DNA of 64,000 nt. It comes from Thermodesulfobacteriota bacterium. Lineage in GTDB: Bacteria > Desulfobacterota_D > UBA1144 > Nemesobacterales > UBA2774. Within the stretch, counting starts at the first letter, position 1, and the number at the start of each line of letters is the position of its first letter. Under the pieces are notes generated by a model, which worked only from the letters and a program-made list of their open reading frames with translations, ran no database searches and was not told where the DNA came from. This document shows, piece by piece, positions 23,901 to 51,539 of the stretch. The DNA is taken from NCBI GenBank assembly GCA_965223335.1, contig OZ244991.1:256001-320000 (forward strand), written 5' to 3'. Both the position numbers and the translations under genes were made by a program.

Positions 23901-24026
23901 TCCTAAACAATCACATGATTTCAACAACTTGCGAGTGTGATAAGGTTAAGGTAAAATCGTACTAATTAAAAGCTCCAACCCAAAAAAGTCCCCGTAGCTC
24001 AGCAGGATAGAGCACAGGATTCCTAA
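23901..24026 (+). repeat. attL of island A: 126-bp direct repeat (tRNA promoter + 5' half of tRNA-Arg)
   Basis: Identical to 34424-34549; ends exactly at the anticodon loop TTCCTAA. Confidence 0.95.
23988..24026 (+). pseudogene. 5' fragment of tRNA-Arg(CCT)
   Basis: GTCCCCGTAGCTCAGCAGGATAGAGCACAGGATTCCTAA, then diverges from the tRNA sequence. Confidence 0.9.
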
Positions 24027-24119
24027 GTCGTCATAGACAATATCTCCCCTTCCAACTAGCTGTTTTTATTTAATAATTTTTTTGCAATGGTTTTGATATT
24101 TCACGTCCCAACATCACCC

Positions 24120-24139
24120 CACTAGAAAAACACTAGAAG
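24120..24139 (+). repeat. Tandem CACTAGAA repeats, likely integrase arm-type sites (left end of island A)
   Basis: CACTAGAAAAACACTAGAAG; CACTAGAAAAAC recurs at 34333-34344 next to the integrase. Confidence 0.6.
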
Positions 24140-24286
24140 AACCTGCCTACAAACCATATTCACAACTAGTTTTCCTATTATACATATCCTGACTATGATT
24201 GGAACTCCATCTTAGACCTAATTTTACATTTATGTGGTATAATCGGCTAATATGCTTTATATGATGATTCATTACATAATTGGACC

Positions 24287-25081
24287 ATGAATAATCAAAC
24301 AACAAATCCTGAATCGAGTGATTTAACTCCTAAAAAACACTTTACCGATTTAGATAAAATACAATTATGGATAGTACTTGTTGCCATTTGCTCAATTGTG
24401 TTAGTGTTTTCATTCTATTTTTATCAATTTAGGGGAGAACTTAGCAGTGATCACTCAATATGGGGACAATTCGGGGATTATGTAGCTGGATTACTCGGTC
24501 CATTTTTAAGCTTCATCGTAATAATCATTTTAGTTTATACATTGAGAGCTACCAATGAAACTCTCAGCATATCGAGAGAACAATTAAACCACTCAGAACA
24601 GATGCTAAAAACTATGAAAGATGAACTCACGATTACTAAAGAAGAACTCAAAAAATCAAGAGAAATATCTGAACAACATGTCAAACATCTGAATGACGAA
24701 GCACTTAAAAATGAATTGCATGTAGCAATGAAAGAGTATGATAGTGAATTGCAAAAATTATTTCAACAAAAAGCTAATTTTCCGCGGATGCAAGGAAGTT
24801 ATGAATACTTCTTTTCAACAATAGACGATGATGAAAGTTCACGACTGATTCCTGAAAATTCAAAAGATGTAACCGAGTTAGACAAAAAGATACTCAAAGA
24901 TTTATGTATTGTTCTATTTAAATTGCACCACTTCATGAAACACTATGACGAAATCTCACAAAATAGTGCTATTAACAAGCTGTATCTATTAAAATACAGA
25001 AATTTATATCAAAGACTTGTAGCTAAAAAATATATGGAACCCGGTAAATTGGATTTATTTGAAATTGATAAGAATGATTAA
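24287..25081 (+). CDS. Membrane protein, putative abortive-infection (putAbiC-like N-terminus)
   Basis: Two TM helices around WGQFGDYVAGLLGPFLSF, followed by a coiled coil and a helical domain. Confidence 0.6.
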   Translation: MNNQTTNPESSDLTPKKHFTDLDKIQLWIVLVAICSIVLVFSFYFYQFRGELSSDHSIWGQFGDYVAGLLGPFLSFIVIIILVYTLRATNETLSISREQLNHSEQMLKTMKDELTITKEELKKSREISEQHVKHLNDEALKNELHVAMKEYDSELQKLFQQKANFPRMQGSYEYFFSTIDDDESSRLIPENSKDVTELDKKILKDLCIVLFKLHHFMKHYDEISQNSAINKLYLLKYRNLYQRLVAKKYMEPGKLDLFEIDKND

Positions 25082-25211
25082 TATACACAAGACATGAAAT
25101 AAATAATTGATGCTGATTTATATATATTGAATCATTTCAACTAGTTATAAGCAAATTCACATGGTATATTTACAAATACACAGAAGTAATCAAGAATAAC
25201 ATGAATTGCTT

Positions 25212-25688
25212 ATGAAACACGATGATCTTGTTTTAGAAAATACGATTAGCCTTAAACAATTTCCACCGAAACTGCGTAAATTAGCTAAATATTTATTACA
25301 ATCAGAGAAACCTGTCACGATTTCTCAAGCATGTAGAGAGTTAGGTTTAAACAGAGAGAGTATAGGAACATTGATGTGGCGTTCTAAGCAAAAAGGTAAT
25401 GATTTCAATGAGTTTATAAAGCAACTGGCTAATTCTTATCTAAATGCTAATAGATTAGCTGTTTATGAAAAGCTCGTGGAAGGGGCGGTGTCAAGCGCGT
25501 CTACGTCCCATAATGACAGGAAAACGTATCTACAATTGACTGGAGACATCAAAGCTACCACTGATATCAATGTGAATGTTCTTACTATTGGGGTCAATCA
25601 GGGTACAGGAAGACCAGCCGACATCCCAACAGAAAAAGGAATAGTCGATGCAGCACCACCCAGACCTGAGCAGAACAAATCTAACTAA
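25212..25688 (+). CDS. HTH protein resembling phage terminase small subunit (phBC6A51-like)
   Basis: HTH TISQACRELGLNRESI, then a DRKTYLQLTG helix and a beta-tail DINVNV. This is the architecture seen in TerS proteins. Confidence 0.5.
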   Translation: MKHDDLVLENTISLKQFPPKLRKLAKYLLQSEKPVTISQACRELGLNRESIGTLMWRSKQKGNDFNEFIKQLANSYLNANRLAVYEKLVEGAVSSASTSHNDRKTYLQLTGDIKATTDINVNVLTIGVNQGTGRPADIPTEKGIVDAAPPRPEQNKSN

Positions 25689-25725
25689 CTGTAATTATTA
25701 TATAACCCTTAACATAAGATTATTC

Positions 25726-26133
25726 TTAACCAAGTAGTTCGTCTCGATGCTCAGCAATTCCTAAGAATACATCATAGCATTCATTCACATTAGCTATTAT
25801 TTGATTCATCTTATCTACATGATTCCTTAGATGCTCAAGATCATTGCTGTTTACACCTGTAACTGGGTCAGGAGACACGCGAATTGCTGAATCTATACCA
25901 TTTACAACAGTAAGCTTAAGGTCAGTAAGCTCACTTTCTATCTTGCGTCCGATATTGAAGATACATGTTTTTAGATCAGTATCTTCCATTATCAATCCTA
26001 TATTCTCAGGATCAGGTATTTGACTATAATCATTTTTTAATATAATCATAGCCCTTTCCATACTCTCGGCTCTGATTACATAGTTACAATAACTACCATT
26101 ATCATTCTTAACCTTTGCTAAATATATTCTCAT
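25726..26133 (-). CDS. Hypothetical protein
   Basis: 135-aa ORF with G-rich RBS. Confidence 0.65.
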   Translation of the reverse strand: MRIYLAKVKNDNGSYCNYVIRAESMERAMIILKNDYSQIPDPENIGLIMEDTDLKTCIFNIGRKIESELTDLKLTVVNGIDSAIRVSPDPVTGVNSNDLEHLRNHVDKMNQIIANVNECYDVFLGIAEHRDELLG

Positions 26134-26832
26134 TTACTACCCCCCCTTATTTATGTGATTGATTCGTAGAATAACATAATTAGTTCTCGAAATGAGCACC
26201 CTAAACGTAAGAAAGTTGAATCGATTTTAACCTTAGTCTAAGTTGCAAATAACCACAAACAACGTCCGATATTTTTCTATTATGTAAACTAACAGAATGT
26301 AGGTTCTCTAGTTATTACAGGCGGTTACAGATTGACGTGATTTATCTAGCATTTTATCAACTATGCATATTCAATGATTACAGACAGTTATGATAATAGG
26401 GTATGACATTATCGTCATGGCTTAATGGCATATATCTACCTTTATTCAAGGGGTCACTTTGAACCCCTTCTCCTGCTATTCTAACACCCTGTTTAACAAC
26501 ATGTGTTTGGTGTACTCATATCAAGATGTACTTATACAATGAGTACTTATAGATGATCTAATATTCGGAAACATATTTCTATTTTTATTTGATTTATTTT
26601 TCTCTGCAATGTTTTGGAAATAGTCCTGTCTCTTATGAGTAGGCTTATGTAGTAGGGGGGCCAGGCGAGCATGGGGGGTGGGTGCCAGCGTCTTAGGGGT
26701 CACCTACAAACGATTAAGTCTAAAATAGTCAGGGTCCAATTCTAACGCAAGTCTCTCTATTTTATAGTTTGACATATATTGTCACCGGTGTCGCAATTTG
26801 TCACATAGCGTGGAAACGGTTATATTATTTTC

Positions 26833-27906
26833 GTGCAAAAACTGAAGTTAGTCTCTCTCCTTTCAGGCTATCTTGTTGAACTAAAAGATTCTATCCGAGA
26901 AACAAACCCTGCACTTCCCAGCACATGGCTCGTTGATGAAAATGAATTCATAGAATGGGTTTGTCGTATGGATGCCAAGATGTTGTTGAATCTTTTCGAA
27001 CTTACCGAAAGGCTGATTAGTGAAATTCTGTCCGATGATGAATGGTATATGAGAACAAAACCAATGGCCAGAGTAGATTACTCTATATCAGCTGATTTAT
27101 TGGACTCGCGCTATTTACTCACTATTGCTGATGACAAGAACTGGGACGAATTAAAAACCATTATAAACGTAGGGGGGAAAGGTTCGCCTTTATTAGCTAC
27201 CATCCTGATGCATTTCGTCCTAGGTTGGAGATTGATACTGGAACTTACCGAAAAAGAAACATTAGATCAGCTTTATGTTGTGCTTTCTGACCTATTTGTC
27301 GATGATGTTGAGAGTCGGGAATTGGCCGAAACATCACTCTACAACTTAATTGAATATGCGGAGAACACAGCTAAAAAAGAACTAAAACGGAAGGTTAGAA
27401 TTAAAATTAATAAGCTTAAGAAAGACAATAGTTCTAATAATGACTTTATTTCAGAAGATAACTCCGATGAAGAATTTATGGTAGAAATTGTTAAAGCACT
27501 AATGAGCTCATTTAAGAAATTCCCAACTATTAAAGACAAAATCATAGCTGCAGCTGAAGGGGATAAAGGGATAAAGTATGTCCCCAAACGAATCGCTGAT
27601 CGCTATAAATCCCATCTTGGAAAACCAAGCGAAAAGATGAATGACATCTCACTAGACTCAAATACACAACAAAACACACCGGAATATCAAATAGAATATA
27701 AAAACACCCCCTTTCTGTTATATGAAGAGTTTTCAATCGGTAAAGAATTTAAAGACAAAATCAATAAAATGGACCCAACAGATCAGCAGATTTTAAATAT
27801 GAAGAAAGACGGATACACAATAAGAGAGATATCGGCAGAATTGTCAATTTCAAAAAGCACAGTGAGTGACAGACTGAAAGTAGCACGCAAAATCCTAACT
27901 TCTTAA
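26833..27906 (+). CDS. Protein with C-terminal sigma-70 region 4/LuxR-type HTH
   Basis: DQQILNMKKDGYTIREISAELSISKSTVSDRLKVARKIL; TTGACA element upstream at ~26769. Confidence 0.7.
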   Translation: MQKLKLVSLLSGYLVELKDSIRETNPALPSTWLVDENEFIEWVCRMDAKMLLNLFELTERLISEILSDDEWYMRTKPMARVDYSISADLLDSRYLLTIADDKNWDELKTIINVGGKGSPLLATILMHFVLGWRLILELTEKETLDQLYVVLSDLFVDDVESRELAETSLYNLIEYAENTAKKELKRKVRIKINKLKKDNSSNNDFISEDNSDEEFMVEIVKALMSSFKKFPTIKDKIIAAAEGDKGIKYVPKRIADRYKSHLGKPSEKMNDISLDSNTQQNTPEYQIEYKNTPFLLYEEFSIGKEFKDKINKMDPTDQQILNMKKDGYTIREISAELSISKSTVSDRLKVARKILTS

Positions 27907-28031
27907 ATTCCACCCTTATTCTTTTCCAACTTTAACACACCTTAAGTGGTCAATTTGTTCTTTTGACCACTTTTTTTTCAATTTCAAAAATAAATCCGGA
28001 CAAATCGTAATCTGCAGCGGATATATAGGTT

Positions 28032-28259
28032 ATGGATAAATCCAGAGTCATATTCATGGCTAGTCCGCGTATAGGTTTGACTGTCACTTCTGAAGGTGTA
28101 GAGCAAGTTTTAATCCTAACAGACGGTGGTGAGCATTTAGATCGTACTGCCGGATTCTCACTTTGCTCTTTCTTGGACAGCGAAATAAAAGAGTTTGACA
28201 AAGCGATCAAGAGCAAGCTCAACAAGCTCAGAAGAAATAAAATCGGAATTGTGCAGTAG
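28032..28259 (+). CDS. Small hypothetical protein
   Basis: 75-aa ORF co-oriented with the replication module. Confidence 0.5.
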   Translation: MDKSRVIFMASPRIGLTVTSEGVEQVLILTDGGEHLDRTAGFSLCSFLDSEIKEFDKAIKSKLNKLRRNKIGIVQ

Positions 28260-28276
28260 GTAGGCGAAAAATAAAA

Positions 28277-28296
28277 AGCCCGCTCATAGGCGGGCT
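28277..28296. terminator. Hairpin/intrinsic terminator
   Basis: AGCCCGC-tcatag-GCGGGCT preceded by an A-tract. Confidence 0.55.
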
Positions 28297-28320
28297 GTGT
28301 GCAAAAACTGAATAATATCA

Positions 28321-29055
28321 ATGTGTAAAGTCAGTATACCACGTCCTAAAAATAATAAAAGTGCCGATCGCACTCCAAATAAAAACGGGCTAACATCCCG
28401 TTTTCCTGACGGACTACATAAAGACCATACACACCCCAATTCGCGTAATAGAGATTTCGAATTCCGGTTGCAAAAGGGCCTGCGGCAAGAACAATCTGCA
28501 AAAGAGTATTTCAAAGAGAATTTCGATCTAGATCTCGAAATATTTGGAGTCGGCCGAGAACCGAAGGAAGTGAAAGAGCAGGTTTCAAAACTGCATGACA
28601 ACAGTACTAAGTTTCTTCGCCATCTCCCAGATACTTACTGTGTCATTTCGGATATTGGAACCATTTATGTTGAAGTTAAACATGCACTTAAGAAAACCGG
28701 TAATTTCTCCATAAACTTAGACGAGTTCAACACACAAAACCTTCTACACCAATATCTCGGAGTGAGAATTTTATTTGCTTTTGCACCTTCTGAATCCGAT
28801 AGATTTTGGCGCGGAGACTGGATTCAGAATCTAGACATTAAAACTAGAGCTATAAGAAATAAAGAAGTGCTGGAGAACTTTAATGGTTCTAGGAAACCTT
28901 GCACCCTGATTGAGAAAAAATCCCTGCCCCACCTTGATGATGTAGTGCACAAACTCTTAAATAAACACGAGACAGATGCAAAACTGCAGACTTTTCCAAC
29001 CAATTGGCCAACAGCCTGCCAGAAAATTAGAGCACATAAGGACTTGCAAAAATGA
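28321..29055 (+). CDS. PD-(D/E)XK nuclease-like protein
   Basis: G...E N-terminal helix and RHLPD...IYVEVK catalytic pattern. Confidence 0.65.
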   Translation: MCKVSIPRPKNNKSADRTPNKNGLTSRFPDGLHKDHTHPNSRNRDFEFRLQKGLRQEQSAKEYFKENFDLDLEIFGVGREPKEVKEQVSKLHDNSTKFLRHLPDTYCVISDIGTIYVEVKHALKKTGNFSINLDEFNTQNLLHQYLGVRILFAFAPSESDRFWRGDWIQNLDIKTRAIRNKEVLENFNGSRKPCTLIEKKSLPHLDDVVHKLLNKHETDAKLQTFPTNWPTACQKIRAHKDLQK

Positions 29056-30266
29056 CACCAGGCCTTTTCCCCGAATTTTTGAATCTTCACTATCGCAATA
29101 TAGATAAGAATTTTTACTTCGCAAATCTGATAGAACTAGATGGAAAATCCATTTGTAAAATATATCCAACCAGAACAGGCGCGTGGAAAGGTCGCAACAT
29201 ATCAGAGATTGCAACATACCTTGGTGTGGGGCTGTTGAATGACAAGAGCAAAAGAAGGACGCGAGACAACATAAGCCATGTTATGTGTTGCTTTGTGGAT
29301 CTAGATGGATGCACAACCTTGGATGCTGTAAAATTTAGAATCCAAGGGGCAGGACTTCCAAAACCAACTATTATAGAAACTAGTCCGGGTAGATTCCATG
29401 TAAAATCCTATCTACGAGTCCCAGTAAGGACTTCGGGCAAAGAGTTCCAATTTTGGAAGAAGACTCAAAGCGCATATACCTGGGCATTTAAGGATTTAGG
29501 GGCCGACCTAAATATACAACACGATACGACACGAATCCTTAGAAACGAATTCGCAACCGAGATATATAACGAAAAACACAGGGAAAGGCATTTGGTTAAA
29601 GTGCACCAGGTAGGAGAGCCTGTTAGTCTTAGTGACATTTATACACCCCTTTGCGATGCGGGATACATAGAAGAGAGAAAATGTACCCCATGGCATATTT
29701 CAGAAAAAAAGTTGCGAATGTTCTTCATGCAAAACCCCGAATGGTCAGGAACTCAAAAAGAACTATCTCAGCTAACTGGCATACCACTTAGAACTGTAAA
29801 AGCCCTTCTTTACAAGATGAGAAAAGCAGAACTATTCGATGAAACAATTATAGGAAAGGGGGAAAATAGGCACATCAAGTACAGATTCAAGCCATACTTT
29901 ATGAGATACACCCCCCCTACAAACTTTAAAGGGCATGAAAAAAGATTAGACTTAGTTAAACAGTTAGGGGGGCAGGAGTGTAATAAGGCTAGTAGAGCAA
30001 TTTTGAAGTACATAAACGAAAAAATCCCCCCAGGAAGTAGAAACAACGCTACTTTTGTAGCCGGAGTCGGCTTATTAGAACTTTCTCAGGGGAGAATTAC
30101 GGAAAGTGAAGCGATTAGTACGTTAAAACCAGGTTTTGATCTATCCAATACAAATGACAGTAGCTTTACCTGGAGTCAATTTTGCGCAACTATACGCTCC
30201 GCCCTTAAGCCAGGTCGCGAATTCCGCTTCAAAGAATCAGCTCTAAGAGCATGGAGCCTAATATGA
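29052..30266 (+). CDS. AEP-superfamily primase/RepB-like replication protein with HTH and PriCT-like C-terminus
   Basis: FVDLD, IETSPGRFH, RILR (RepB primase motifs); TQKELSQLTGIPLRTV HTH; GSRNNATF primase C-terminal motif. Confidence 0.8.
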   Translation: MTPGLFPEFLNLHYRNIDKNFYFANLIELDGKSICKIYPTRTGAWKGRNISEIATYLGVGLLNDKSKRRTRDNISHVMCCFVDLDGCTTLDAVKFRIQGAGLPKPTIIETSPGRFHVKSYLRVPVRTSGKEFQFWKKTQSAYTWAFKDLGADLNIQHDTTRILRNEFATEIYNEKHRERHLVKVHQVGEPVSLSDIYTPLCDAGYIEERKCTPWHISEKKLRMFFMQNPEWSGTQKELSQLTGIPLRTVKALLYKMRKAELFDETIIGKGENRHIKYRFKPYFMRYTPPTNFKGHEKRLDLVKQLGGQECNKASRAILKYINEKIPPGSRNNATFVAGVGLLELSQGRITESEAISTLKPGFDLSNTNDSSFTWSQFCATIRSALKPGREFRFKESALRAWSLI

Positions 30267-30425
30267 CACACAAAAACACCCCTGCAACACAACATGACAG
30301 CTATAAAAGCCGTTCATACGCCATAACAAACTACAAGTACGTATATTTTGACCTGTTCAAAGAGTATAGAACAGTTATGTGGCAACGTGCTTATATATAA
30401 CAAACAACCTACAAATTGATCTATT

Positions 30426-31199
30426 TTAGTTACATGGACGGACTGCACGAGCTCCAACGAAATTTTCGTTGGTCTTGTGTGCATGACCACAATGTACACT
30501 ATTTCCCCTACAGCTCCATGTATGCGTTGACAAATTAGGATGGGGTGTACTTGTCCAATGAATATGATCAGTTGATGAAAGACCTGGAAAACTTATTTGG
30601 TTACCTTGAAGACTGAAATCTCCTAGACTTTGAAATACTCTAATATTAGGAATGCACCAATCTCGATAACCAGCGAGACCACACAGTCCACTACCAATAC
30701 CACTGCAATCTGCATCCGTATTACAAGGAGTAGTACCATCTCCATCGCAGTTATTGTTTATAGCATCTAAGAATTCCGTAAACAACGTACCATCTGGGTT
30801 AGGTAAAGTAGCACTCCATTTGTATACATTATCTTTGTCATGAAGACCCCCATTATCATCTTTCTTCTCCCACATGTAACCTGTATTGTTATCTGTAAAG
30901 GTGCCGTCTCCATTATCAGTAAAACTTAATGCAACACCATGCCCTGAAAGTCCATATGCATCAGGATTACTAAACCCATCCCCCGGAAATGTTTGACCTG
31001 GGTTAGCTTCACACTCAGCTAAGTCAACATAACATTCATCTAAATCAAAGTTGCATATATTCAGATTTTCCGCACATTCAGGTAAACCACCCTTTGGCGG
31101 GAACTCAAATGGTGATTTTGCAGTTGAGAATGAAACCGCTACTGTTAAATGTAAAATGCAGATAACAAAAAAGATAATAAGTGCTTGAAGTAGTCTCAT
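30426..31199 (-). CDS. Secreted DUF1566 (Lcl C-terminal, C-type lectin-like) domain protein
   Basis: Signal peptide; FTDNGDGTFTDNNTGYMWEK, AGYRDWCIPN, HWTST, ARAVR. Confidence 0.85.
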   Translation of the reverse strand: MRLLQALIIFFVICILHLTVAVSFSTAKSPFEFPPKGGLPECAENLNICNFDLDECYVDLAECEANPGQTFPGDGFSNPDAYGLSGHGVALSFTDNGDGTFTDNNTGYMWEKKDDNGGLHDKDNVYKWSATLPNPDGTLFTEFLDAINNNCDGDGTTPCNTDADCSGIGSGLCGLAGYRDWCIPNIRVFQSLGDFSLQGNQISFPGLSSTDHIHWTSTPHPNLSTHTWSCRGNSVHCGHAHKTNENFVGARAVRPCN

Positions 31200-31388
31200 A
31201 ATATTCTCTCCTTTTTACAAGCAGATTTAACTACCTGATAATACGTATTATATAAAATTAGATAATTAATTGATACTAGACTATGGTTTATTTTTTCTGG
31301 AAAGAATTAATACTAAAGTATTGGTACTCGATCATAAACGATCTCTAACAAGTTCTGAAATCTTTAGAGTTATGAGACTATTTTATGA

Positions 31389-31410
31389 TTGAATCATCCC
31401 GACATCGGGA
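31389..31410. repeat. Left arm of inverted repeat flanking the TA pair
   Basis: TTGAATCATCCCGACATCGGGA; the reverse complement of 33181-33202 is TTAAATCATCCCGACGTCGGGA (20/22). Confidence 0.75.
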
Positions 31411-31787
31411 TTTGCATATTATGTAAATTCAAAGAATTTCTCCTGTACTGAAAAACGCTAGTTGTAGTCATAATAAATGTATTTTATTATATTTATTAAT
31501 TAGACGGTTTATCGGGTTTGGGACTAGTTATTTGATGTATCTATAATAATCACACGGATACAAGAAAATACATTACTACATTTGCTATCTGACATTACAT
31601 CAAAGAATAATCAACACCAACAAATGGGTCTAGTGGTTGTGAACTTTCCGTAATTTCAGACGTTAGTCAGATTACAGAAAATGGATTATTAATACAATTT
31701 TGTATTATAATTTTTATTACTGACTAGAATCTAAAGATTGAAGATTGAAAAAGATGTCGATCTGTCCTGTCTGGGGTATGGGATTAC

Positions 31788-42600: not shown

Positions 42601-45600
42601 TAATTATGTCTACACACCTGATTTTACAATTAGTGGTGATATTGCAGTATCAAATCGCGGGATTTTTGAATTTAATGTGTACAAGATATTACCGAATAAC
42701 GAGCTAAGACCAATCCAAGTAATTGATCCCCTTCCTAATATTGGTAAAACCCCCTTAGGTACAGATTTTCAAAACGATACATTGTTTGTTTCTTCTGATT
42801 ACATTGCCAATAGCGTATTGGTCTATACAATCACAGATTACCTTGCTCCTACGATTAACGTTGTAAGTATTGATCCTCCTCCAAACCAATACGGTGTTTT
42901 TGGCCCTGAAGATATAGCTGGCCATTCTAATATCACTGTTACATTTGAGTGTATCGATAACAGCGGTACTGGTATAGACACATGTACTAATACTCAAAGT
43001 GTGCCGACTTCTGATGGTGTACACCAGGTTGTGGGCACGGCTACTGACAATGATGGAAACACATCTATCACAGTATTAACTATAGTTGTCGATACACAAG
43101 AACCTATTATTGAATACCTCAATTCCGAGATTGATGACAGTACAAATCCACCTAGGATTGGTATAGATTCGGGCGATAATGACGATATATCTGGATCAAA
43201 TGATGATACCTGGAACATAGATGTAGATGGCAATCAATCCACTGGTAATTGTTCACGAGAACCATCAACTAACACTTCCCTATGCAATGGTCCACCAACT
43301 GACTATGGAATTGGTCAGGCTTTGAACCTAAACCTCCCCACTGTGGAAGAGCTGACACAGTTTAGAAACCTACACTCTACAATACAAAGGGTTGTGCGTA
43401 TTGAGGTCGAAGATTTTGCTGGCAATAGGGCGTCAAGAGAGTTCTTAGTAGACTTCCCAAACCCCGATGCTCCTAACCCGCAAACACTCACGGTTACAAC
43501 ATCAGGTAACGGCATCGTAACCAGCTTCCCCACAGGCATCGACTGCGGTGCGGACTGTACTGAGGACTATGGTGAAGGTACGGTAGTCACCCTCACAGCT
43601 ACGCCTGATCCAGGCTGGACGTTTACAGCTTGGAGCGGTGATGCCGACTGTACAGACGGCGAAGTCACCATGGATATGGCAAAGAGCTGTACAGCCACAT
43701 TTGATATGTCCAGTGGCACACAGCATACCCTCACAGTCACCAAATCCGGTACAGGGACGGGTACTATAACCAGCAGTCCTGCAGGTATAGACTGCGGCGC
43801 AGACTGTATAGAAGATTACGATGAGAATACCGTTGTAACCCTCACTCCTACTCCAGATGCTGGATCAACCTTCACAGGCTGGTCAGGCGATCCCGATTGT
43901 TCTGACGGTAGTGTAACTATGGACACTGCCAAGACCTGTACGGCTACCTTTGATCTTTCAACACCAACCCTACACACCTTAAATGTTACAAAGACAGGTA
44001 CGGGCACAGGAACCGTTACGAGTACCCCAACGGGTATAGACTGCGGTGCTGATTGTACCGAGGACTTTAATGAGGATACGTCTGTAACACTTATCCCGAC
44101 CCCCGACACAGGGTCCTCGTTTGTGGGTTGGACCGGTGATCCCGATTGCTCCGACGGTGTTGTTACCGTAGATGCTGCCAAGACGTGTACTGCTACCTTT
44201 GATACAGCAGCTACTCAACACACCTTAACCATAACTAAAGCAGGGGCTGGTACTGGCACAGTGATGAATGTAGGTGGCGGCATCAACTGCGGAACTACGT
44301 GTAATTTCAACTTCAATGATGGCACCTCTGTGATCCTCACCGCCACAGCAGACCCCGGATCTGCATTCGTTAGCTGGTCTGGAGACGCAGACTGTGATGA
44401 CGGTATTGTTAGCATGGACACAGCAAAGACATGCACAGCTACGTTTGAAGCCGAAGCGATTGTACCTATTTTACTAGAGGGATCACCAGGTACAGCTGGT
44501 TCAGTCAGTACGTTCGTAATCACCGGGGCTACGCCCAATAGTCAAATTGAGCTCAGGTATGGAACATCTCAAGGCTCTTCATCCGCAATGTGTACTTCAG
44601 GGTCTACGACTTATGACATCGCTGGGGCAAGCCTTATTGGTAACGCTGTTGCAGATTCATTCGGTAATGCTTCTATTGATGTATCTATCCCATCCAACTT
44701 TGTGGGTGTGTCCTTATTCATGCAAGCATTGGATAAGACCGCTTGTGCTACCACAAACCTCCTTACTCAGACATTTGATGTGCCAGGAGCAGTAGTTTAT
44801 CCCATATTGGTTTCCAAAGATGGCACAGGGGATGGGACTGTAACAACGGATCCCCAGGGTCTAAACTGCGGTGTACAATGTGCAGAGGTATATGCAGAGA
44901 ATGATTTGGTAACTCTGATAGCCACTCCTGCAAATGGGTCTGTATTCAGTGGATGGAGTGGAGCCGCAGACGACTGCTTTGACGGTATCGTTACAATGGA
45001 TATGGCCAAGAACTGTATTGCTACATTCGATATAGCAAGTAGCACACAGCATACCCTCACAGTATCTAAAGGCGGTACAGGGACGGGTACTGTAACCAGC
45101 AGCCCAGCAGGTATAAGCTGTGGCACTGATTGCACCGAGGATTACAATGAGAATACTGTCGTAACCCTGACACCTTCACCAGATTCAGGCTCGACATTTG
45201 TAGGCTGGACTGGAGATGCTGACTGTAGTGATGGCAATGTAACAATGAACGCTGCTAAGACCTGCACGGCTACGTTTGATACATCCACACCCAACCAACA
45301 CACACTCACAGTCTCTAAGGCCGGTACAGGTACGGGTACAGTCACAAGCAGCCCCACGGGTATAAGCTGCGGTGCGGACTGCACTGAGGATTACAACGAG
45401 AACACAGCTGTAACACTCACTCCTACACCAGACGCAGGATCAACCTTCACAGGCTGGTCAGGCGATGCAGACTGCTCTGACGGTAGTGTAACAATGGATG
45501 CGGCTAAAACTTGCACGGCTACGTTTGATACCTCATCATCCACCCAATACACACTCACAGTCTCTAAAGCCGGTACAGGTACGGGGACTGTAACCAGTAG

Positions 45601-48600
45601 TCCTGTAGGCATCGATTGTGGCGCTGACTGCACCGAGGATTATGACGAGAATACAGCCGTAACCCTCACTCCTACCCCAGATGCAGGATCAACCTTCACA
45701 GGTTGGAGCGGCGATCCAGACTGTAGTGACGGTAGTGTAACTATGGACGCTGCCAAGACTTGTACAGCTACATTCGATCCTTCAACACCGACCCTACACA
45801 CTTTAAATGTTACAAAGACCGGCACAGGGACAGGAACTGTTACGAGTACCCCAACAGGTATAGACTGCGGTGCTGACTGTACAGAGGACTTTAATGAGGG
45901 TACGTCTGTGACCCTTATCCCGACCCCCGACACCGGGTCCTCGTTTGTGGGTTGGACCGGGGATCCCGATTGTTCAGACGGTGTTGTTACCGTAGACGCT
46001 GCCAAGACGTGTACTGCCACCTTTGAGACAGCAGCTACTCAACACACCTTAACCATAACTAAAGCCGGGGCTGGTACTGGCACAGTAATGAATGTAGGCG
46101 GTGGCATCAACTGTGGAACTACGTGTAATTTCAACTTTAATGATGGCACCTCTGTGATCCTTACCGCCACAGCAGACCCCGGATCTGCATTCGTTAGCTG
46201 GTCCGGAGACACAGACTGTGATGACGGCATAGTTAGCATGGACACAGCCAAGACATGCACCGCCACGTTTGAAGCCGAAGCGATTGTACCTATTTTACTA
46301 GAGGGATCGCCAGGTACAGCTGGTTCAATCAGCACATTCGTTATCACCGGGGCTACGCCCAATAGTCAAATTGAGCTCAGATATGGATCAGCTCAAGGCT
46401 CCACATCCGCAACGTGTACTTCAGGATCTACCACTTATGACATCGCTGGGGCAAATATTATTGGTAACGGTGTAGCTGATTCATTCGGTAATACCTCTAT
46501 TCAGGTATCTATCCCATCCAGCTTTGTTGGTGTGTCCTTATTCATGCAAGCATTGGATAAGACCGCTTGTGCTACCACAAACTTACTTACTCAAACCTTT
46601 AGTGTGCCGGGAGGAGTAGTATACGACCTCTTGATCACAAAGGATGGCACGGGAGATGGGACCGTAACAACTGATCCCCAGGGTCTAAACTGCGGTGTAC
46701 AGTGTGCAGAGGTATATGCAGAGAACGATTTGGTAACACTGATAGCCACTCCTGCAAACGGATCTGTATTCAGTGGATGGAGTGGAGACCCCGATTGTAC
46801 AGATGGTCTCGTTACAGCGGACTCTATCAAAACATGTAATGCTACATTCGATATAGCTAGTAGCACACAGCACACCCTTACCGTTACGAAAGCCGGTACG
46901 GGTACGGGAACTGTAACCAGCAACCCAGCAGGCATAAGCTGTGGCGCAGACTGTACAGAGGACTACAATGAGAATACAGCTGTAACCCTTACACCTTCAC
47001 CAGATTCAGGCTCAACCTTCATAGGCTGGACTGGAGATGCTGACTGTAGTGATGGTAGTGTAACAATGAACGCTGCTAAAACTTGCACGGCTACTTTTGA
47101 TACCTCATCATCCACCCAATACACACTCACAGTCACTAAAGCTGGCACAGGGACGGGTACAGTCACAAGTAGTCCCTCAGGCATAAGCTGCGGTGGTGAC
47201 TGCACCGAAAATTATAATGAGAATACTGTAGTAACCCTAACACCTACTCCAAATGAAGGTTCAACCTTTATAGGCTGGAGTGGTGACCCGGACTGTAGTG
47301 ACGGCAGTGTAACAATGGACGCTGCCAAGACCTGTACGGCTACTTTTGATACTTCCTCTTCCACACAGCATACCCTTACTGTATCTAAAGCCGGCACAGG
47401 GACTGGAACAGTCACAAGCAGCCCTGCTGGCATCAGCTGTGGCGCAGACTGTACAGAGAATTACAACGAGAATACGGTTGTAACCCTGACACCTTCATCT
47501 AATGCTGGCTCTACCTTCACAGGTTGGAGTGGGGATCCGGACTGTAGTGACGGTAGTGTGACTATGGATGCGGCTAAAACTTGCACGGCTACTTTTGATC
47601 AATCCACCGCACAACAGTATCTACTAACTATCAATAGAACTGGTCTAGGTATTGGTATGGTTACAAGTAATCCACCAGGCATCAACTGCGGTAATGATTG
47701 TATTGAATTTTACGACGAGAACACCCAGGTTGTAATAACTGCAACTCCGTTTAGTGGCTCCTCGTTTACGGGATGGAGTGGTGATGCAGATTGTTCGGAT
47801 GGTGTAGTAACAATGAGCAGTGCAAGAACATGTACTGCTGTCTTTGCATCTGGTGGGGGTACACAGCAATATACCCTATCGGTTACCAAATCCGGTACAG
47901 GGACGGGTACCGTAACCAGTAATCCTGCAGGCATAAACTGTGGAAGTGATTGCAGTGAGAATTATACCGACGGTACATCGGTAACACTCACCGCAACGGC
48001 TGACACTGGATCCACCTTCACAGGTTGGAGTGGCGATACCGATTGTAGCGATGGGGTCGTCACGGTGAATTCGGCTAAGACGTGCACAGCTACATTTGAT
48101 AGCGGTGGCGGGTCTCAATTCACAATGCAACCTTTGACTCCTGGAACAGCTAACGCAAACAATACCATTACTGTCACAGGTGCTACACCCAACGGTCAAG
48201 TCAACTTCCGTTATGGTTTTTCACCTGGAACTACATCTGTCAGTTGTACAAATGGCACGGTCAATGTAGGTATAGCAAATGCTACTCACCTAACAACTGT
48301 ATCAGCAGATTCTTCTGGTACAGCTTCTGTAACTGTATTCATCAGCACCCAATTCATCGGTCTCACACTATACTTGCAAGCAGTGGATTTATCGACATGT
48401 ACTATAACCAATCTACTTGCTCATCCTTTCACCTCCTCATCCAAGCTATATGAATTCGATATATTGGATATGAAGTCCGCCTATGCTGCCAATCTCAATT
48501 CCGACAGTTGCTCGGATGTGGGTGGGGTTAGTGGTTGTATGAATCTAAGTGTGGAGGGCATAGATGAAAGAACCCACACAATCAACAATACAGATAATTC

Positions 48601-50293
48601 ACGCTTATACCCATATATCATCAATAAGCCTCTGGGAGGTGACAAAGTGAAAACCAATACAAACATTGCCTCGGAAGGCAGATTGAAAACACAAACAAAC
48701 GAGTCACAAAACACTTCATGGTTGCACAGGACCAAATCCAAACTAAGTCCGCTCATGAAATCGATGCGGCTTATGCTGCTGTCTCTCGTGTTCGGAGCCA
48801 ATGCATATGCGCAAGGCACCCCTGTGCCCTTTATAGACCTCGAGTATAACTACGACGGTGTAGGGAATGTAACGGGTATCACCGACCACATTGATAACAA
48901 CAATAGTTGCACGATGGGATACGACCCACTCAACCGATTGACCTCAGCCGTGGGGCCATGGGGGGCTGGTGGATTCACATACGACTCTATTGGCAACAGA
49001 ACAAGTAAGAGTTTTGACGGTAATAGCACCAATTACTCATATGACAGCGCTACTAACCGACTACTTTCAGGTCATGGCTACGATGCAAATGGCAACATAA
49101 CCAGCGGAGGACCGTTCAACTATACCTATGACTCCTATAACAGGGTTAAATCTGCAACGAATATGGCAGATGATATTACCTATCTTTATGATGGTGATGG
49201 TAGGAGGATTAGCCAGACTGTAAATGGCGAGACCACGATCTTTGCTTACGGTGCAGATTCCAATGTTCTCACCGAGTTGAAACTCGATCCAACTGATTCA
49301 ATGTGGAAGCCCTCAAAGGACTATATCTATGCAGGCCGGCTAAACATTGCCGTTGTGGAGTTCGATACTGGCGGTACCTCAACCGGCAAGAAGTTTTACC
49401 ATGCGGACCACCTGGGATCGGCTATTGCACTCACTGACAATGTGACCACAGTAGTATGGGACAGGACCTACTTCCCATACGGCGGCAGATTTGCCGGAGA
49501 ACTTAGCGGACCGGTTCAAAACACACACCAATACACAGGCAAAGAATTTGATGAGGATTTTACCCAGCTGGCCTACTACGGAGCTAGGTACTACAACCCC
49601 AGTATTGGGCGCTTTATGAGTGTGGATCCTGCGGGGATAGACATCACCAATCCCCAGTCCTGGAACCGCTACGCCTACGTCCAAAACAACCCATTCTCTT
49701 ACGTAGACCCGGATGGGGAAATTTTAGAAACTGCTTGGGATGTATTTAATATTAGTCTGGGTGTTATCTCATTCAAGCAAAGTGTATCTAAGGGCAATTA
49801 TTTTGATGCTTTACTAGATGCGGGTGGAATCGCTATTGATTCTGCAGCGGCTGTAATTCCTGTAATCCCTGGTGGTGTCGGGACAATCATTAAGGCTAGT
49901 CGAGCAGGTAAAGTTGCTGCGCAATTGGCAAAAAATGCCAATAGAGTGAACAAAGTAATAAAAAATATCCCTAATAATGGTATATTAGATCCAAAGACTA
50001 TAAGGTTTACTCAAGATAGTGCAAAGCGATACTTTAAAGATGGTAGATCAGTGGAAAAACTGATAAACGATTTGAAATTGGGCAAAGTTACTGCAGCCGA
50101 TGTTCCACCAATTAAAATATTTCAAAGTGATGGATTGACATTTTCTCTAGACAATCGTCGTCTTCATGCATTTCAAGAAGCAGGTGTTCCAATTAGAGTC
50201 GTTGCCGCAACTGCTGAAGAAATTGCTAAAGCTATAAGAGACAGTAAATTTTCAACTATAAATGAAGGTGTATCTATTATAATAAGAAAATAA
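36629..50293 (+). CDS. Giant Rhs/YD-repeat polymorphic toxin with inserted InlB-B-like repeats, FG-GAP-like propeller and C-terminal ParB-like toxin domain
   Basis: Signal peptide; VNLFSGNL...RTYNS N-terminal domain; YD repeats; 24 G.xCG.xC/F.GWSG repeats; Rhs core YTGKEFD...YGARYY...NPFSYVDPDG; C-terminal IRFTQDS...SLDNRRL. Confidence 0.92.
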   Translation: MNYQNTRSIITLLCLFFMVMMIPRYAFAIGENYDEWGFKKNKTYMQFSPEEYVNLFSGNLVLTHTDVVLPGNGGLDLKIQRTYNSKIFSELTNVGFTISGSVFGNLGVGWEMHFGRINTLGSILQIQHPILVEMPDGSIKTAFTNDQSNISSNIASSYVTEDFWFIDGFDHNSDQVIDEYVMKLPDGTTYTFDHRVSNSLTYNNYYVTSIDDTNGNTITFEYYDCCGFTTTPDTGTIGSCSPHGPNDTTSRHLKKITDSVGREIHFTMDNATCHENAIKTIDVFGDIYTYNYSTVLGVPGGDNHDGGSGKLLLGVDPPVGPSWDYDYLAQPLDGHPDGELIQITHPSGGTIDYTYETFDLELYDQSGSGNTGNFKFRALTSRTTSGPNITNPGTWTFDYHPTETTDKTTVTDACGNKEVYNFFGLRTGSFGGLWKIGLLDYKQTLDAADNPVETTTNVWNSYQISNEGQDNISSPSINGTYLPLLISQDISRDGKNYSTTFTYNEFYDSPTQIMETGEFTRTTDITYFENLSSNIFGKPASTTVNQSGESKVITNSYDPAGNLTMENQYGVITEYGYFPDGNLNWEKNARNFYTVFDLYDNGLATVLKYGATDNAGGSAIYTENRSINWEGTIASHTDGKGNTTSFTYDGINRLTQITPPPSGEAVTDIVYDDTNGRFDTVSKGNSSLHTTYDGFGRKIGTQTAAGVQTEIQYDVCGRKSYESLPYDTNTPNTGNSYTYDALDRLKSITRPDSTVVSYTYSSDADGSKITVNNENNQNTTMHYKAFGDPDDKRLVKVTDALTNATGYTYDLLGNIVQVGSPNGTSRSYSYNDKNFLVSETHPESGTTSYSHDEIGNVTSKMNAKSETTSYAYDPVNRLTNVNNPGAEPDVDYGYDFANNRTSMVGIHPNVEQTYNYTYTYDASNRLTNQDVTVGSDVSYSVDYAYDVKNNVTSIIYPSGETVNYDYDAQNRILNILDGTSNNISTNFNYIASGAPTHFESVYGVDSDFTYDTRQRLKTLQISRVFPYLLIIKEGLGDGTVIGTDSSSTQVINCGDVCAIQSPAEGVEITLTQTPDTGSNFVGWSGDPDCTDDIGDPMITMQGTKVCIATYGDTPVQVELTVTKDGTGTGTVTSTPAGIDCGADCSEFYNANTEVTLSANPAAGDVFAGWSGGAGDCDDGTVTMDVAKTCNATFNTAPPGGGQSTLMINANGGDGTGTVTSNPAGIDCGATCSNAFDNGTVVALIATPDTGSSFIGWTGDADCSDGRITIDANKSCTAEFDDTAPNQYTLNIGVTGSGSISSSPAGIDCGADCTESFVENTEVVLSAAADTGYTFTGWSGDPDCADGVVSMIADKTCDATFIASTGMTFSLSVLIDPAGTGLGDVVSSPAGIDCGPNCSADFDENQSVILTPLPSLGSTFTGWSGDPDCTDDGVGGVAIVSMNAVKSCTATFDVSTLVQHQVSVTKSGMGSGLIISNPSGIDCRDVCDANFDENSIVTLSAVPDLGSTFVGWSGDCAGTDEDVSLTISNAVNCNADFDALPIYTFSIVTSGTGTGTVKSEKLGIDCGTDCSEDYYQGTEVTLIPTPDPGSIFIGWKGDNDCFDGIVTITKPNACEAIFDLVEVGQYVLTINKIGGGDGIVTSDPVGLECGNYCQKNFDENTVITLTATADELSEFVEWGADCPGGVVTLDADKTCDVGFKGTTFAQFQTLVPSNVLDQTFGADISIDGDTAVIGALGHPSGEVIAKGIAFVFERDNSGIWNEVQILDPRLPGEELYSGGGYKRDFGSSISLRDDVLVVGSPREYNASTNSDGAAYIYRKNMLGVWEQAQKLTPTDALGFGTKVQVLGDNMVIGSSRDDGSRGAVYAYRKQPSGTWVFSKKLSPSELEPNEEFGSDLVMDGDYLFVANPNDTGSNYQGSVYVYKYVPGFGWVEKQVLTSTTENAQNSFGTSIELKDDVAYIGTYTNQSTTFMDIYRLNGDNVWTYIERYPIDGNYVYTPDFTISGDIAVSNRGIFEFNVYKILPNNELRPIQVIDPLPNIGKTPLGTDFQNDTLFVSSDYIANSVLVYTITDYLAPTINVVSIDPPPNQYGVFGPEDIAGHSNITVTFECIDNSGTGIDTCTNTQSVPTSDGVHQVVGTATDNDGNTSITVLTIVVDTQEPIIEYLNSEIDDSTNPPRIGIDSGDNDDISGSNDDTWNIDVDGNQSTGNCSREPSTNTSLCNGPPTDYGIGQALNLNLPTVEELTQFRNLHSTIQRVVRIEVEDFAGNRASREFLVDFPNPDAPNPQTLTVTTSGNGIVTSFPTGIDCGADCTEDYGEGTVVTLTATPDPGWTFTAWSGDADCTDGEVTMDMAKSCTATFDMSSGTQHTLTVTKSGTGTGTITSSPAGIDCGADCIEDYDENTVVTLTPTPDAGSTFTGWSGDPDCSDGSVTMDTAKTCTATFDLSTPTLHTLNVTKTGTGTGTVTSTPTGIDCGADCTEDFNEDTSVTLIPTPDTGSSFVGWTGDPDCSDGVVTVDAAKTCTATFDTAATQHTLTITKAGAGTGTVMNVGGGINCGTTCNFNFNDGTSVILTATADPGSAFVSWSGDADCDDGIVSMDTAKTCTATFEAEAIVPILLEGSPGTAGSVSTFVITGATPNSQIELRYGTSQGSSSAMCTSGSTTYDIAGASLIGNAVADSFGNASIDVSIPSNFVGVSLFMQALDKTACATTNLLTQTFDVPGAVVYPILVSKDGTGDGTVTTDPQGLNCGVQCAEVYAENDLVTLIATPANGSVFSGWSGAADDCFDGIVTMDMAKNCIATFDIASSTQHTLTVSKGGTGTGTVTSSPAGISCGTDCTEDYNENTVVTLTPSPDSGSTFVGWTGDADCSDGNVTMNAAKTCTATFDTSTPNQHTLTVSKAGTGTGTVTSSPTGISCGADCTEDYNENTAVTLTPTPDAGSTFTGWSGDADCSDGSVTMDAAKTCTATFDTSSSTQYTLTVSKAGTGTGTVTSSPVGIDCGADCTEDYDENTAVTLTPTPDAGSTFTGWSGDPDCSDGSVTMDAAKTCTATFDPSTPTLHTLNVTKTGTGTGTVTSTPTGIDCGADCTEDFNEGTSVTLIPTPDTGSSFVGWTGDPDCSDGVVTVDAAKTCTATFETAATQHTLTITKAGAGTGTVMNVGGGINCGTTCNFNFNDGTSVILTATADPGSAFVSWSGDTDCDDGIVSMDTAKTCTATFEAEAIVPILLEGSPGTAGSISTFVITGATPNSQIELRYGSAQGSTSATCTSGSTTYDIAGANIIGNGVADSFGNTSIQVSIPSSFVGVSLFMQALDKTACATTNLLTQTFSVPGGVVYDLLITKDGTGDGTVTTDPQGLNCGVQCAEVYAENDLVTLIATPANGSVFSGWSGDPDCTDGLVTADSIKTCNATFDIASSTQHTLTVTKAGTGTGTVTSNPAGISCGADCTEDYNENTAVTLTPSPDSGSTFIGWTGDADCSDGSVTMNAAKTCTATFDTSSSTQYTLTVTKAGTGTGTVTSSPSGISCGGDCTENYNENTVVTLTPTPNEGSTFIGWSGDPDCSDGSVTMDAAKTCTATFDTSSSTQHTLTVSKAGTGTGTVTSSPAGISCGADCTENYNENTVVTLTPSSNAGSTFTGWSGDPDCSDGSVTMDAAKTCTATFDQSTAQQYLLTINRTGLGIGMVTSNPPGINCGNDCIEFYDENTQVVITATPFSGSSFTGWSGDADCSDGVVTMSSARTCTAVFASGGGTQQYTLSVTKSGTGTGTVTSNPAGINCGSDCSENYTDGTSVTLTATADTGSTFTGWSGDTDCSDGVVTVNSAKTCTATFDSGGGSQFTMQPLTPGTANANNTITVTGATPNGQVNFRYGFSPGTTSVSCTNGTVNVGIANATHLTTVSADSSGTASVTVFISTQFIGLTLYLQAVDLSTCTITNLLAHPFTSSSKLYEFDILDMKSAYAANLNSDSCSDVGGVSGCMNLSVEGIDERTHTINNTDNSRLYPYIINKPLGGDKVKTNTNIASEGRLKTQTNESQNTSWLHRTKSKLSPLMKSMRLMLLSLVFGANAYAQGTPVPFIDLEYNYDGVGNVTGITDHIDNNNSCTMGYDPLNRLTSAVGPWGAGGFTYDSIGNRTSKSFDGNSTNYSYDSATNRLLSGHGYDANGNITSGGPFNYTYDSYNRVKSATNMADDITYLYDGDGRRISQTVNGETTIFAYGADSNVLTELKLDPTDSMWKPSKDYIYAGRLNIAVVEFDTGGTSTGKKFYHADHLGSAIALTDNVTTVVWDRTYFPYGGRFAGELSGPVQNTHQYTGKEFDEDFTQLAYYGARYYNPSIGRFMSVDPAGIDITNPQSWNRYAYVQNNPFSYVDPDGEILETAWDVFNISLGVISFKQSVSKGNYFDALLDAGGIAIDSAAAVIPVIPGGVGTIIKASRAGKVAAQLAKNANRVNKVIKNIPNNGILDPKTIRFTQDSAKRYFKDGRSVEKLINDLKLGKVTAADVPPIKIFQSDGLTFSLDNRRLHAFQEAGVPIRVVAATAEEIAKAIRDSKFSTINEGVSIIIRK
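43720..47120 (+). repeat. Intragenic ~1.8-kb-period duplication plus ~249-bp tandem units in the Rhs gene
   Basis: For example 43961 and 45785 begin near-identical blocks (offset 1824 bp). Units of ~83 aa recur throughout. Confidence 0.85.
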
Positions 50294-50306
50294 GAGGAGA
50301 AGAGCC

Positions 50307-50570
50307 ATGAATCCATTCAAACTTCATGACCAGTTAGACAAAATAACAACGAGACATGAACTAGCTGAATTCATACTGAGCTTAAGAGAAGATCTAATCA
50401 ACAACCCTTCAGAATGGGAAAATCCTAATTTAGAAAGATTTTTAGAATCAATGTCAGGATGGATTGTAGATATGCATGGATATTTTCAAAATATAGGCGA
50501 ACCATTTCCAGAAGAACTAACATGGGAGCTTTTTGGTAGAATACTCTTAGCTGCTCGGAGTTATGAATGA
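50307..50570 (+). CDS. Putative cognate immunity protein (DUF7660-like)
   Basis: 87 aa directly after the toxin with an AGGAG RBS; WENPNLERFLESM..W...TWELFGRILLAARSYE pattern seen in small genes following polymorphic toxins. Confidence 0.75.
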   Translation: MNPFKLHDQLDKITTRHELAEFILSLREDLINNPSEWENPNLERFLESMSGWIVDMHGYFQNIGEPFPEELTWELFGRILLAARSYE

Positions 50571-50799
50571 TATATCAATAGATTTACCTCTAGATTTGGT
50601 GTCAAGATATTAAGCATACGAAGATCCAGATTCAGGCTATAGTTGTTGAGTTCGGTGTCCATCTAAAATCAGAAACAACTACCTAAAAGATTAGGTCAAT
50701 TTATCATTTAACAAATACAATAAAACCATGAACGTTTAACCCATCTGATATTCCAGTAAACTATATTGATAGAGATTTTGAGGTGCTACCTTCTAAAGA

Positions 50800-51381
50800 A
50801 TGGCCTCAGGAGAAACAAAAGGAATTAGGACCAATACAAAGAGTTTGATAACATTGAGCCGAACAATTTCCCACGCTCTGCGTCATGAACCTTGGGTATA
50901 TGAACTTGAGTTGGACGAAGAGGGCTGGACAGATGCACAGATTCTATTGAATACCCTACAGGCAATGCGCCCTGAATGGAAAGATATAAATGTTGATGAT
51001 CTGATCACTCTGAACAATAGTGCAGGCAAAAAACGTTTTGAGATAGACAAAGGTAGAATTCGCGCTTTATATGGCCACTCTTTACCGGGCAAGATGCTTA
51101 AAACACCTTCTGAACCACCTGAATATTTATATCACGGCACCAATCCAGCAATTATACCAAAAATAAAAGAAAATGGTTTACAACCAATGAATAGACAATA
51201 TGTTCATCTTTCGACAGATAAGAAAACTGCAATTGAAGTAGGTAAAAGAAAGGCTAATAATCCTATACTAATAACAATCTCATCTTCTAAAGCACATAGA
51301 GAAGGCATTATCTTCTATATTGGGAATGATAAAGTATGGCTAGCAGATCAAATCCCACCAAAATATTTATCCTATGAATAG
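50800..51381 (+). CDS. kptA: RNA 2'-phosphotransferase (Tpt1/KptA)
   Basis: LSRTISHALRH.P, KKRFE, RIRALYGHS, LYHGT, GLQPMNRQYVHLS, KVWLAD.IP. Confidence 0.95.
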   Translation: MASGETKGIRTNTKSLITLSRTISHALRHEPWVYELELDEEGWTDAQILLNTLQAMRPEWKDINVDDLITLNNSAGKKRFEIDKGRIRALYGHSLPGKMLKTPSEPPEYLYHGTNPAIIPKIKENGLQPMNRQYVHLSTDKKTAIEVGKRKANNPILITISSSKAHREGIIFYIGNDKVWLADQIPPKYLSYE

Positions 51382-51502
51382 AGTCAGCATCTAGTAATTG
51401 AGTTATGGATACCACTATCCCTCCAAAACCATAAAACAGAAACCCCGTCGACATATTAGTTCCACGACAACAGACTTCCGAGAATCCAATTGAAATCATC
51501 CC

Positions 51503-51539
51503 ATCCTAGGGTCAGAGGTTCGAATCCTCTCGGGGACGC
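51503..51539 (+). repeat. attR of island B: 3' fragment of tRNA-Arg
   Basis: ATCCTAGGGTCAGAGGTTCGAATCCTCTCGGGGACGC versus tRNA 34549-34585, one mismatch. Confidence 0.93.

Follow-up and report, generated by a model that had tools for sequence, protein, structure and literature searches.

In a 64,000-nt stretch (the window) of contig OZ244991.1, from the Thermodesulfobacteriota assembly GCA_965223335.1, a single transfer RNA (tRNA) gene, tRNA-Arg(CCT), appears to be shared by two unrelated elements with tyrosine integrases, one inserted on each side of it. Our reading is that both use the same 7-bp anticodon loop in opposite orientations, the downstream element (island B) being probably grounded and the upstream one (island A) probably excisable. 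We give this reading a probability of about 0.85. The genome, referred to as G000, has 2.71 Mb with a chromosome of 2.67 Mb, and the central features of the locus are listed here with their positions in the window.

23901-24026, plus strand: left direct repeat, the putative attachment site attL of island A; a promoter-bearing upstream segment of 87 bp, then tRNA nt 1-39.
24027-34423: body of island A, 10.4 kb, low in G+C, with cargo genes.
33216-34277, minus strand: integrase A (IntA), tyrosine recombinase of 353 amino acids, PF00589 above cut-off; reads away from the tRNA.
34424-34549, plus strand: central, element-side copy of the 126-bp repeat, with the putatively captured promoter region and tRNA nt 1-39.
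34511-34587, plus strand: intact tRNA-Arg(CCT) with encoded CCA (ARAGORN), the shared target.
34612-35691, minus strand: integrase B (IntB), tyrosine recombinase of 359 amino acids, PF00589.
51503-51539, plus strand: displaced 3' tRNA fragment, nt 39-75, with a G-to-A change at 51508; no loop and no IntB arms upstream.

The CCT anticodon is represented by a single gene among the 44 tRNAs of the genome. BLAST of this tRNA against the genome gave three substantial matches, which are the full gene and two displaced fragments in direct orientation. The upstream fragment (nt 1-39 at 23988-24026, 10.5 kb before the gene) is identical at 39/39 positions (E 6e-16). The downstream one is identical at 36/37 positions (E 2e-12), its sole mismatch being the G-to-A change at tRNA nt 44. 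The integrases that flank the gene are 30% identical to each other, and the catalytic motifs R, HxxR, H and Y are present in both. The G+C content is 46.3% in the left flank, 35.7% in island A and 34-37% in the non-RHS parts of island B. ARAGORN, BLAST and PF00589 thus bear out the order given in an earlier note on this DNA: 5' fragment, island A, integrase A, tRNA, integrase B, island B, 3' fragment. The coordinates of the outer fragments in that note also held, but the left repeat is 126 bp long and not 39. No terminator-like fold was found after the tRNA (z 0.46) or after the 3' fragment (z 0.80).

Short-read contigs were available for positions 21500-41499 from four runs (at most two samples of one study, possibly the source of the assembly itself). 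In all four, the contigs broke up into exactly the 126-bp repeat and a 10,457-bp contig of island A. Therefore the layout around tRNA-Arg(CCT) is not an assembly artefact; it is real and recurrent in the lineage.

In the mechanism that we propose, both elements would cross over within the anticodon loop. Island B would be of the usual kind, which brings the tRNA's 3' half and inserts downstream. Island A would be of a rarer, reversed kind, with the overlap reversed relative to the arms; it would bring the 5' half, insert upstream and have to supply a promoter. Each insertion would rebuild a full loop-centred site, leaving the other element still able to insert. The product would be fragment-A-tRNA-B-fragment, with nt 1-32 of the central gene borne by A and nt 40-77 by B. 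The anatomy, the mixing of partners and the loop-bounded fragments are observed; crossover positions and binding sites are putative. Since the A repeat ends at the last base of the loop and fragments of the IntB clade keep the loop, both elements most likely cross in the same 7 bp. CCA is present on the central tRNA copy and absent from the displaced 3' fragment, as also in G021 and G018, which is in line with element-borne halves. By inference, then, the earlier proposal that the central tRNA consists of such halves is supported on both sides of the loop.

The independence of the two elements was assessed by a survey of tRNA-Arg(CCT) in 33 genomes of the family, of which 27 contained its 5' half and six gave no tRNA match. 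The gene was occupied on both sides in four genomes (G000, G027, G028 and G029, the last with two fragments on separate contigs and the full gene unassembled), upstream only in one (G005), downstream only in five (G002, G004, G014, G018 and G021), and on neither side in 15. In G025 and G031 a displaced 5' fragment was found and the remainder is unassembled; with the six genomes lacking a match, they make up eight that stay unassigned. The three 5'-half copies of G018 were considered as displaced fragments and rejected, a native promoter being present before each. Order-wide, two or more copies of the 5' half occur in 8 of 101 genomes.

Partners were found to mix in both directions. B left ends that are 95-97% alike over 1150 bp lie behind three upstream states: an A-type element (L131), an element of another clade (G027) and none (G018, contig C3). 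L129 and L130 have one and the same A end (100% identity over 1200 bp), followed by partners that are unrelated to each other (53%, equal to background). Moreover, IntA, IntB and the upstream integrase of G005 fall into three separate clades in a tree of 31 integrase sequences, from which L129-132 and the G069 protein were left out. Because partners mix and single-sided alleles exist, the 27.6 kb of the two islands does not behave as a unit, and the independence of A and B is well supported by these comparisons. The earlier note had held that two independent elements share the tRNA without competing and had asked for a survey of relatives; the empty, upstream-only, downstream-only and two-sided alleles found there, with their mixed partners, agree with it.

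Scanning of metagenome contigs with IntA gave 11 loci from 110 candidate stretches. The three full-length relatives at 69-70% identity are all situated upstream of tRNA-Arg(CCT); each shares the arms of island A and has a tRNA-facing promoter of its own, and in each case a second integrase follows downstream of the tRNA, although they may come from related data sets. Genome contigs scanned in the same way gave one distant match among 43 candidate stretches.

These downstream partners might indicate one compound element of 27.6 kb that moves with the full tRNA in its middle. Two-sided occupancy is indeed frequent, a downstream element being present in 4/5 resolved family genomes with an upstream element versus 5/19 without (Fisher p=0.047, or p=0.10 without G000; counts are small, the genomes are kin and G026 was found empty after that count). 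Outer sites at which both elements keep the loop also have one overlap sequence in common. However, the free mixing of partners largely refutes a compound element. The two sides differ in arm motif and in integrase clade, single-sided alleles exist, and the outer right site has no loop here; an equal excess could arise in element-rich habitats. We regard such a unit as very improbable, and retain two independent elements. A cleaner two-sided example was found in the single-contig genome G005 (C1, ~77,000-116,000; L140-L142). There, a full tRNA-Pro(CGG) has a 5' island of 6 kb on its upstream side and, downstream, a tandem of two islands (12.5 and 20 kb); all fragments are perfect and the integrases belong to three clades, the first downstream one being of the IntB clade.

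Three further features bear on the behavior of island A.

24121-24140, plus strand: putative left arm-type sites of IntA, two ACTAGAA units with a period of 11 (motif).
34291-34319, plus strand: decayed tRNA-facing promoter of island A itself, spacer kept and -10 box lost in comparison with L129, L131, G004 and G025.
34323-34352, plus strand: putative right arm-type sites of IntA, three units (motif).

The block shared by the two repeat copies (126/126 identical positions) reaches from the ribosome-binding site of a divergent dehydrogenase gene as far as nt 39, where the anticodon loop ends. Displaced 5' fragments of relatives stop at nt 39-44. The closest IntA relatives are inserted upstream of tRNA genes, and the ACTAGAA motif adjoins IntA relatives as well. 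At the locus, exactly spaced pairs occur at these two sites only; four one-mismatch pairs elsewhere in the chromosome correspond to chance level. The units are presumably bound by IntA. As far as its sequence goes, island A is a 5'-fragment tRNA-gene (tDNA) island, with a direct fragment at a distance within the 2-200 kb of this class, its own integrase, an identity block centred on the anticodon and a replacement promoter-like sequence. Its integrase is intact, both of its ends carry arms and its repeats are perfect, and it can probably still be excised, by IntA or by homologous recombination over the 126 bp, and an intact tRNA with its promoter would remain. Contig depths of island A and left flank in the four runs (11.4/9.9, 11.9/10.3, 31.8/35.1 and 9.1/14.6) give no share of cells and were not used as evidence; the last pair could mean that A is missing in some cells.

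The left repeat contains a predicted sigma70-like promoter (-35 at 23929-23934, 17-bp spacer, -10 at 23952-23957), and this promoter-like sequence is duplicated at 34452-34480, before the rebuilt tRNA. Among IntA relatives, the integrase start is followed by the promoter, two arms, about 50 bp and then the tRNA, with arm-to-loop distances of 94-99/83-88 bp in G004, G025, G069 and L129-131. In island A, 213/202 bp separate the arms from the true loop, and 93/82 bp separate them from the TCCTAA at 34424. This hexamer, with a genome frequency of 1.9e-4 per position, forms both termini of the 126-bp repeat and the last six bases of the loop. The decayed promoter of island A has therefore probably been replaced by a 120-bp piece of the chromosomal upstream region. 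As to the route, we lean slightly towards recombination of the A core with the core-like TCCTAA in the ribosome-binding site of the dehydrogenase gene.

The 126-bp repeat could also have formed with no captured circle, if an earlier A copy had decayed to a scar of promoter and 5' half, fused to the dehydrogenase gene, before A reinserted, or by one-sided gene conversion. The promoter in the 87 bp matches the promoter of A-clade elements at 20/29 positions, joint best in the chromosome, where five sites, both repeat copies included, reach this score; one 12-mer of it is found chromosome-wide in the two copies only. In addition, A-type promoters stand before tRNA-Arg(CCT) with no intact element in G002, G004 and G014, and before a truncated IntA in G025 (0/300 shuffles in each). 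Against this origin, island A keeps a separate decayed promoter beside its arms, at the position seen in relatives; plain reinsertion leaves unexplained why the block sits where the old core was; and the close relatives L129-131 have no such block. We consider a scar or conversion unlikely as the source of the repeat, and keep to capture.

The same match has a bearing on the chromosomal promoter itself. Most other genomes of the family have a different, native promoter at tRNA-Arg(CCT), so that the one here is probably left over from an older A-type insertion; owing to the A-clade match, a reading of the 87 bp as a plain native promoter was dropped. Comparison with the upstream region of G034 by alignment gave no information on the 87 bp. 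Flanking DNA seems to have been captured elsewhere too: about 50 bp with a promoter at tRNA-Pro in G022 and the native -10 region in L129/L130 (both judged by eye), and an 88-bp downstream unit in a 3'-type element of G004, which gives a 134-bp direct repeat. Taken jointly, these cases might reflect a two-way traffic of tRNA promoters, from element to host, as permanent promoters of the gene, in G002, G004, G014 and the chromosomal copy of G000, and from host to element in island A (through the core look-alike), G022 and L129/L130. In addition, two-sided occupancy might be favoured and not accidental, and a compound circle, carrying a promoter-equipped tRNA and two integrases, could arise from outer sites with a common loop overlap. 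We offer this joint reading very tentatively. Promoter exchange is the more interesting by-product of the analysis and suggests mobile elements as agents of turnover in tRNA regulation.

Two side observations concern these regions. At L085 (G025:C72), the truncated IntA (33 codons, 75% identical), with arms and promoter, is followed by a displaced 5' fragment, that is, two upstream-type elements in tandem. Downstream of tRNA-Arg(CCT) in G002 (L034) and G004 (L033) lies an array of ~88-bp units, each ending in about the last 16 tRNA bases.

On the other side of the tRNA, two features matter for the state of island B.

34635-34653, plus strand: putative left arm-type sites of IntB, two TGTCAGT units with a period of 12 (motif); the only such pair at the locus.
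51564-51719, plus strand: orphan RHS-core fragment, 25 bp past the 3' fragment; 92% at the amino-acid level over 52 residues to the RHS core.

IntB relatives with 65-69% identity lie directly downstream of tRNA-Arg(CCT). IntB-clade islands with intact outer sites (G021, G018 and G027 at tRNA-Arg, G005 at tRNA-Pro) have a fragment that starts at nt 29-31, includes the loop and is preceded by a matching arm pair 120-145 bp upstream. Here, the 3' fragment begins after the anticodon loop, and no TCCTAA was found in 51300-51700. A decayed IntB arm at ~51383 was considered and was unsupported by shuffles. With neither loop overlap nor arms at its outer site, island B is probably grounded through loss of its right arm and loop core. 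By its integrase, left arms and displaced fragment it is assigned to the 3'-fragment A-site class, though its outer site is not intact. Thus, the earlier claim that excision of either element would leave an intact tRNA probably stands for A and is doubtful for B. The G-to-A change at 51508 reads as decay after displacement. It would break the outer anticodon-stem pair with C28, which is kept in the left fragment, and would enter the gene only upon loop-crossover excision, of which the damaged B site is probably incapable.

Several points weigh against the reading proposed here. For this species, neither an empty nor a single-occupied allele was found, G000 being alone in its genus and the empty alleles belonging to other genera only, and a 30-mer from the repeat had no match in metagenome contigs. 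The read contigs showed no excision junction and no indel, and no G-to-A change at the central gene, which is not a sensitive test: contigs drop rare variants and the right end of B is outside their range. The only variant was a T-to-G change at 34553, probably from tRNAs of other organisms. For the capture step, the DNA before 34424 was searched for a remnant of the tRNA 5' half that A once carried; such a remnant was rejected, as 913/2000 shuffles score as well, and the capture model has to assume that it decayed or was replaced. The boundary at TCCTAA, moreover, was spotted after the fact. Finally, the DNA before 51503 is unlike the right ends of relatives (141, 159 and 452 of 500 shuffles match as well). 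The right end is thus not tied to IntB, and the 3' fragment may belong to another, older element.

Indeed, the downstream 17 kb may not be one island. The left end with IntB could have been fused by deletion to an older element, the 3' fragment then being a junction in a decayed tandem array of RHS islands. A right end devoid of IntB arms and loop and the RHS-core relic directly past the 3' fragment agree with this, as do the bases after the fragment, which by eye resemble the starts of element left ends. So do the mismatched left and right arm types on contig C15 of G018, the true tandem in G005 and the return of synteny only near 62.8 kb. The window contains, on the other hand, no further tRNA fragment and no second downstream integrase. 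We rate a fused array as a serious possibility, somewhat short of even odds; it is compatible with two elements sharing the anticodon loop and would refine that explanation. The gene order common to relatives resumes only at ~62.8 kb; in the empty G006, the tRNA has as neighbours the dehydrogenase gene on the upstream side and, on the downstream side, the gene located at ~62.8-67 kb here. Since RHS-like DNA continues past 51539, this position represents a recombination scar, and the foreign DNA does not end there.

Each half of the layout is known. Islands with a displaced 5' fragment were reportedly first described by Zhao and Williams in 2002, as cited in PMC1635311 and PMC6563490. In a chromosome-jumping model attributed in PMC8074189 to Rutkai et al. 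(2006), att sites are said to change through secondary sites and abnormal excision. Island A shares with this model the capture of host flank into attP through a core-like secondary site; the target gene is unchanged here, the gain is a promoter and the mechanism is inferred from sequence only.

The Islander database holds 3919 islands, 159 with a 5' fragment and 3760 with a 3' fragment, with 2083 A-site islands and 125 tandems (PMC4383910). Candidates at the same gene are resolved there as single islands or tandem arrays, and two-sided occupancy is not discussed (PMC4383910). Like the 5'-fragment islands of Islander, island A has a tyrosine integrase, a direct 5' fragment upstream, an anticodon-centred site and the need for a new promoter; unlike them, it duplicates 87 bp with a whole promoter, and its tRNA is also used by a 3'-type island on the other side. 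Island B resembles 3'-fragment A-site islands by IntB, its left arm sites and the loop-containing fragments of its relatives. It differs by an outer site with no loop or arms, and the two islands stand back-to-back, whereas those of tandems are stacked on one side.

According to PMC8371274, the 7-bp overlap of tyrosine recombinases matches the anticodon loop, and tRNA genes of bacteria retain, with rare exceptions, the promoter they had originally. As described in PMC8371274 and PMC5495485, archaeal integrases of the pTN3/TKV4-like type target the tRNA 5' half, and the rebuilt gene is cut off from its original promoter. Both aspects recur in island A. In those systems, however, the att site lies in the integrase gene and the tRNA is read from the integrase promoter, whereas IntA is intact, points away from the tRNA and leaves it a dedicated promoter. 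In literature searches aimed at two-sided occupancy or promoter supply, we found no description of two-sided tRNA sharing, although an earlier account is possible in primary papers of 2002-2006. The two-sided layout is a logical combination of known island classes which we did not find described itself.

The basic layout follows from these classes, and the surprise is moderate. One tRNA gene would in effect offer two docking sites that do not compete. Two mobile elements could between them supply the parts, including the promoter, of a working tRNA gene, here the sole CCT gene of the genome. Where island finders allow each tRNA a single island or a single tandem array, cases of this kind may be merged or lost. 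A natural integrase pair with one overlap in opposite orientation would be useful to study how orientation and arm spacing set att-site specificity, and the locus might serve for two-cargo integration at one site.

Island A encodes a membrane protein, a sigma70-r4 helix-turn-helix (HTH) protein and an Lcl domain protein besides its integrase. Weak matches point to a terminase-small-subunit-like HTH protein, a primase-like protein and a SocA/Panacea-like antitoxin (just above cut-off) with an adjacent open reading frame (ORF); in PHROG, primase (E 0.001) and terminase small subunit (E 0.005) matches are weak, as are all PADLOC matches. Capsid and conjugation genes were not found in the island, and a search of viral contigs with an IntA alignment gave no relative in 172 candidate stretches. 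These weak family matches suggest a satellite- or plasmid-like element. A satellite of the phage-inducible chromosomal island (PICI) type, a class of 10-15 kb with integrase, regulators, primase or replicase and packaging-interference genes and no capsid, is a candidate assignment, for which the primase and terminase matches are both weak. The chromosome also contains an IntA paralogue (41%; C1:2134044-2135264, L070) downstream of tRNA-Thr(CGT) in ordinary orientation, and the wider IntA group includes both insertion orientations at many tRNAs.

The remaining genes of island B are as follows.

35692-35991, minus strand: small regulator-like ORF, conserved beside IntB relatives.
36629-50293, plus strand: RHS protein of 4554 amino acids with InlB-B and FG-GAP repeats, RHS core and a variable C-terminal domain (putative interbacterial toxin).
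50307-50570, plus strand: DUF7660 protein, putative immunity gene by position.
50800-51381, plus strand: gene of the Tpt1/KptA RNA 2'-phosphotransferase family, after the RHS-immunity pair.

In the ESM Atlas, the only matches of the RHS tip at 0.9 or above were unnamed clusters; MafB and ParB, below 0.9, are leads only. A segment of the RHS core is duplicated (49506-49660 and 51564-51719, 85% nucleotide identity), and between the duplicates lie the toxin tip, the immunity and KptA genes and the tRNA fragment, an arrangement like that of RHS tip-exchange modules. The second copy continues into the 3' piece of a flavin amine-oxidoreductase gene (51731-52285), 40% identical to the full copy of the genome at C1:2119824 and presumably hemY-like. 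Further downstream, three tandem paralogous secreted proteins with IPTL-CTERM sorting motifs are encoded at 52854-56028. The ORF at 56150-57646 joins an N-terminal part that is amidohydrolase-like by eye to an arginase-family domain, possibly a deletion fusion. Outside the window, contig C3 of G000 (9,233 bp) has 74% G+C, against 46% for the chromosome, and is possibly a contaminant.

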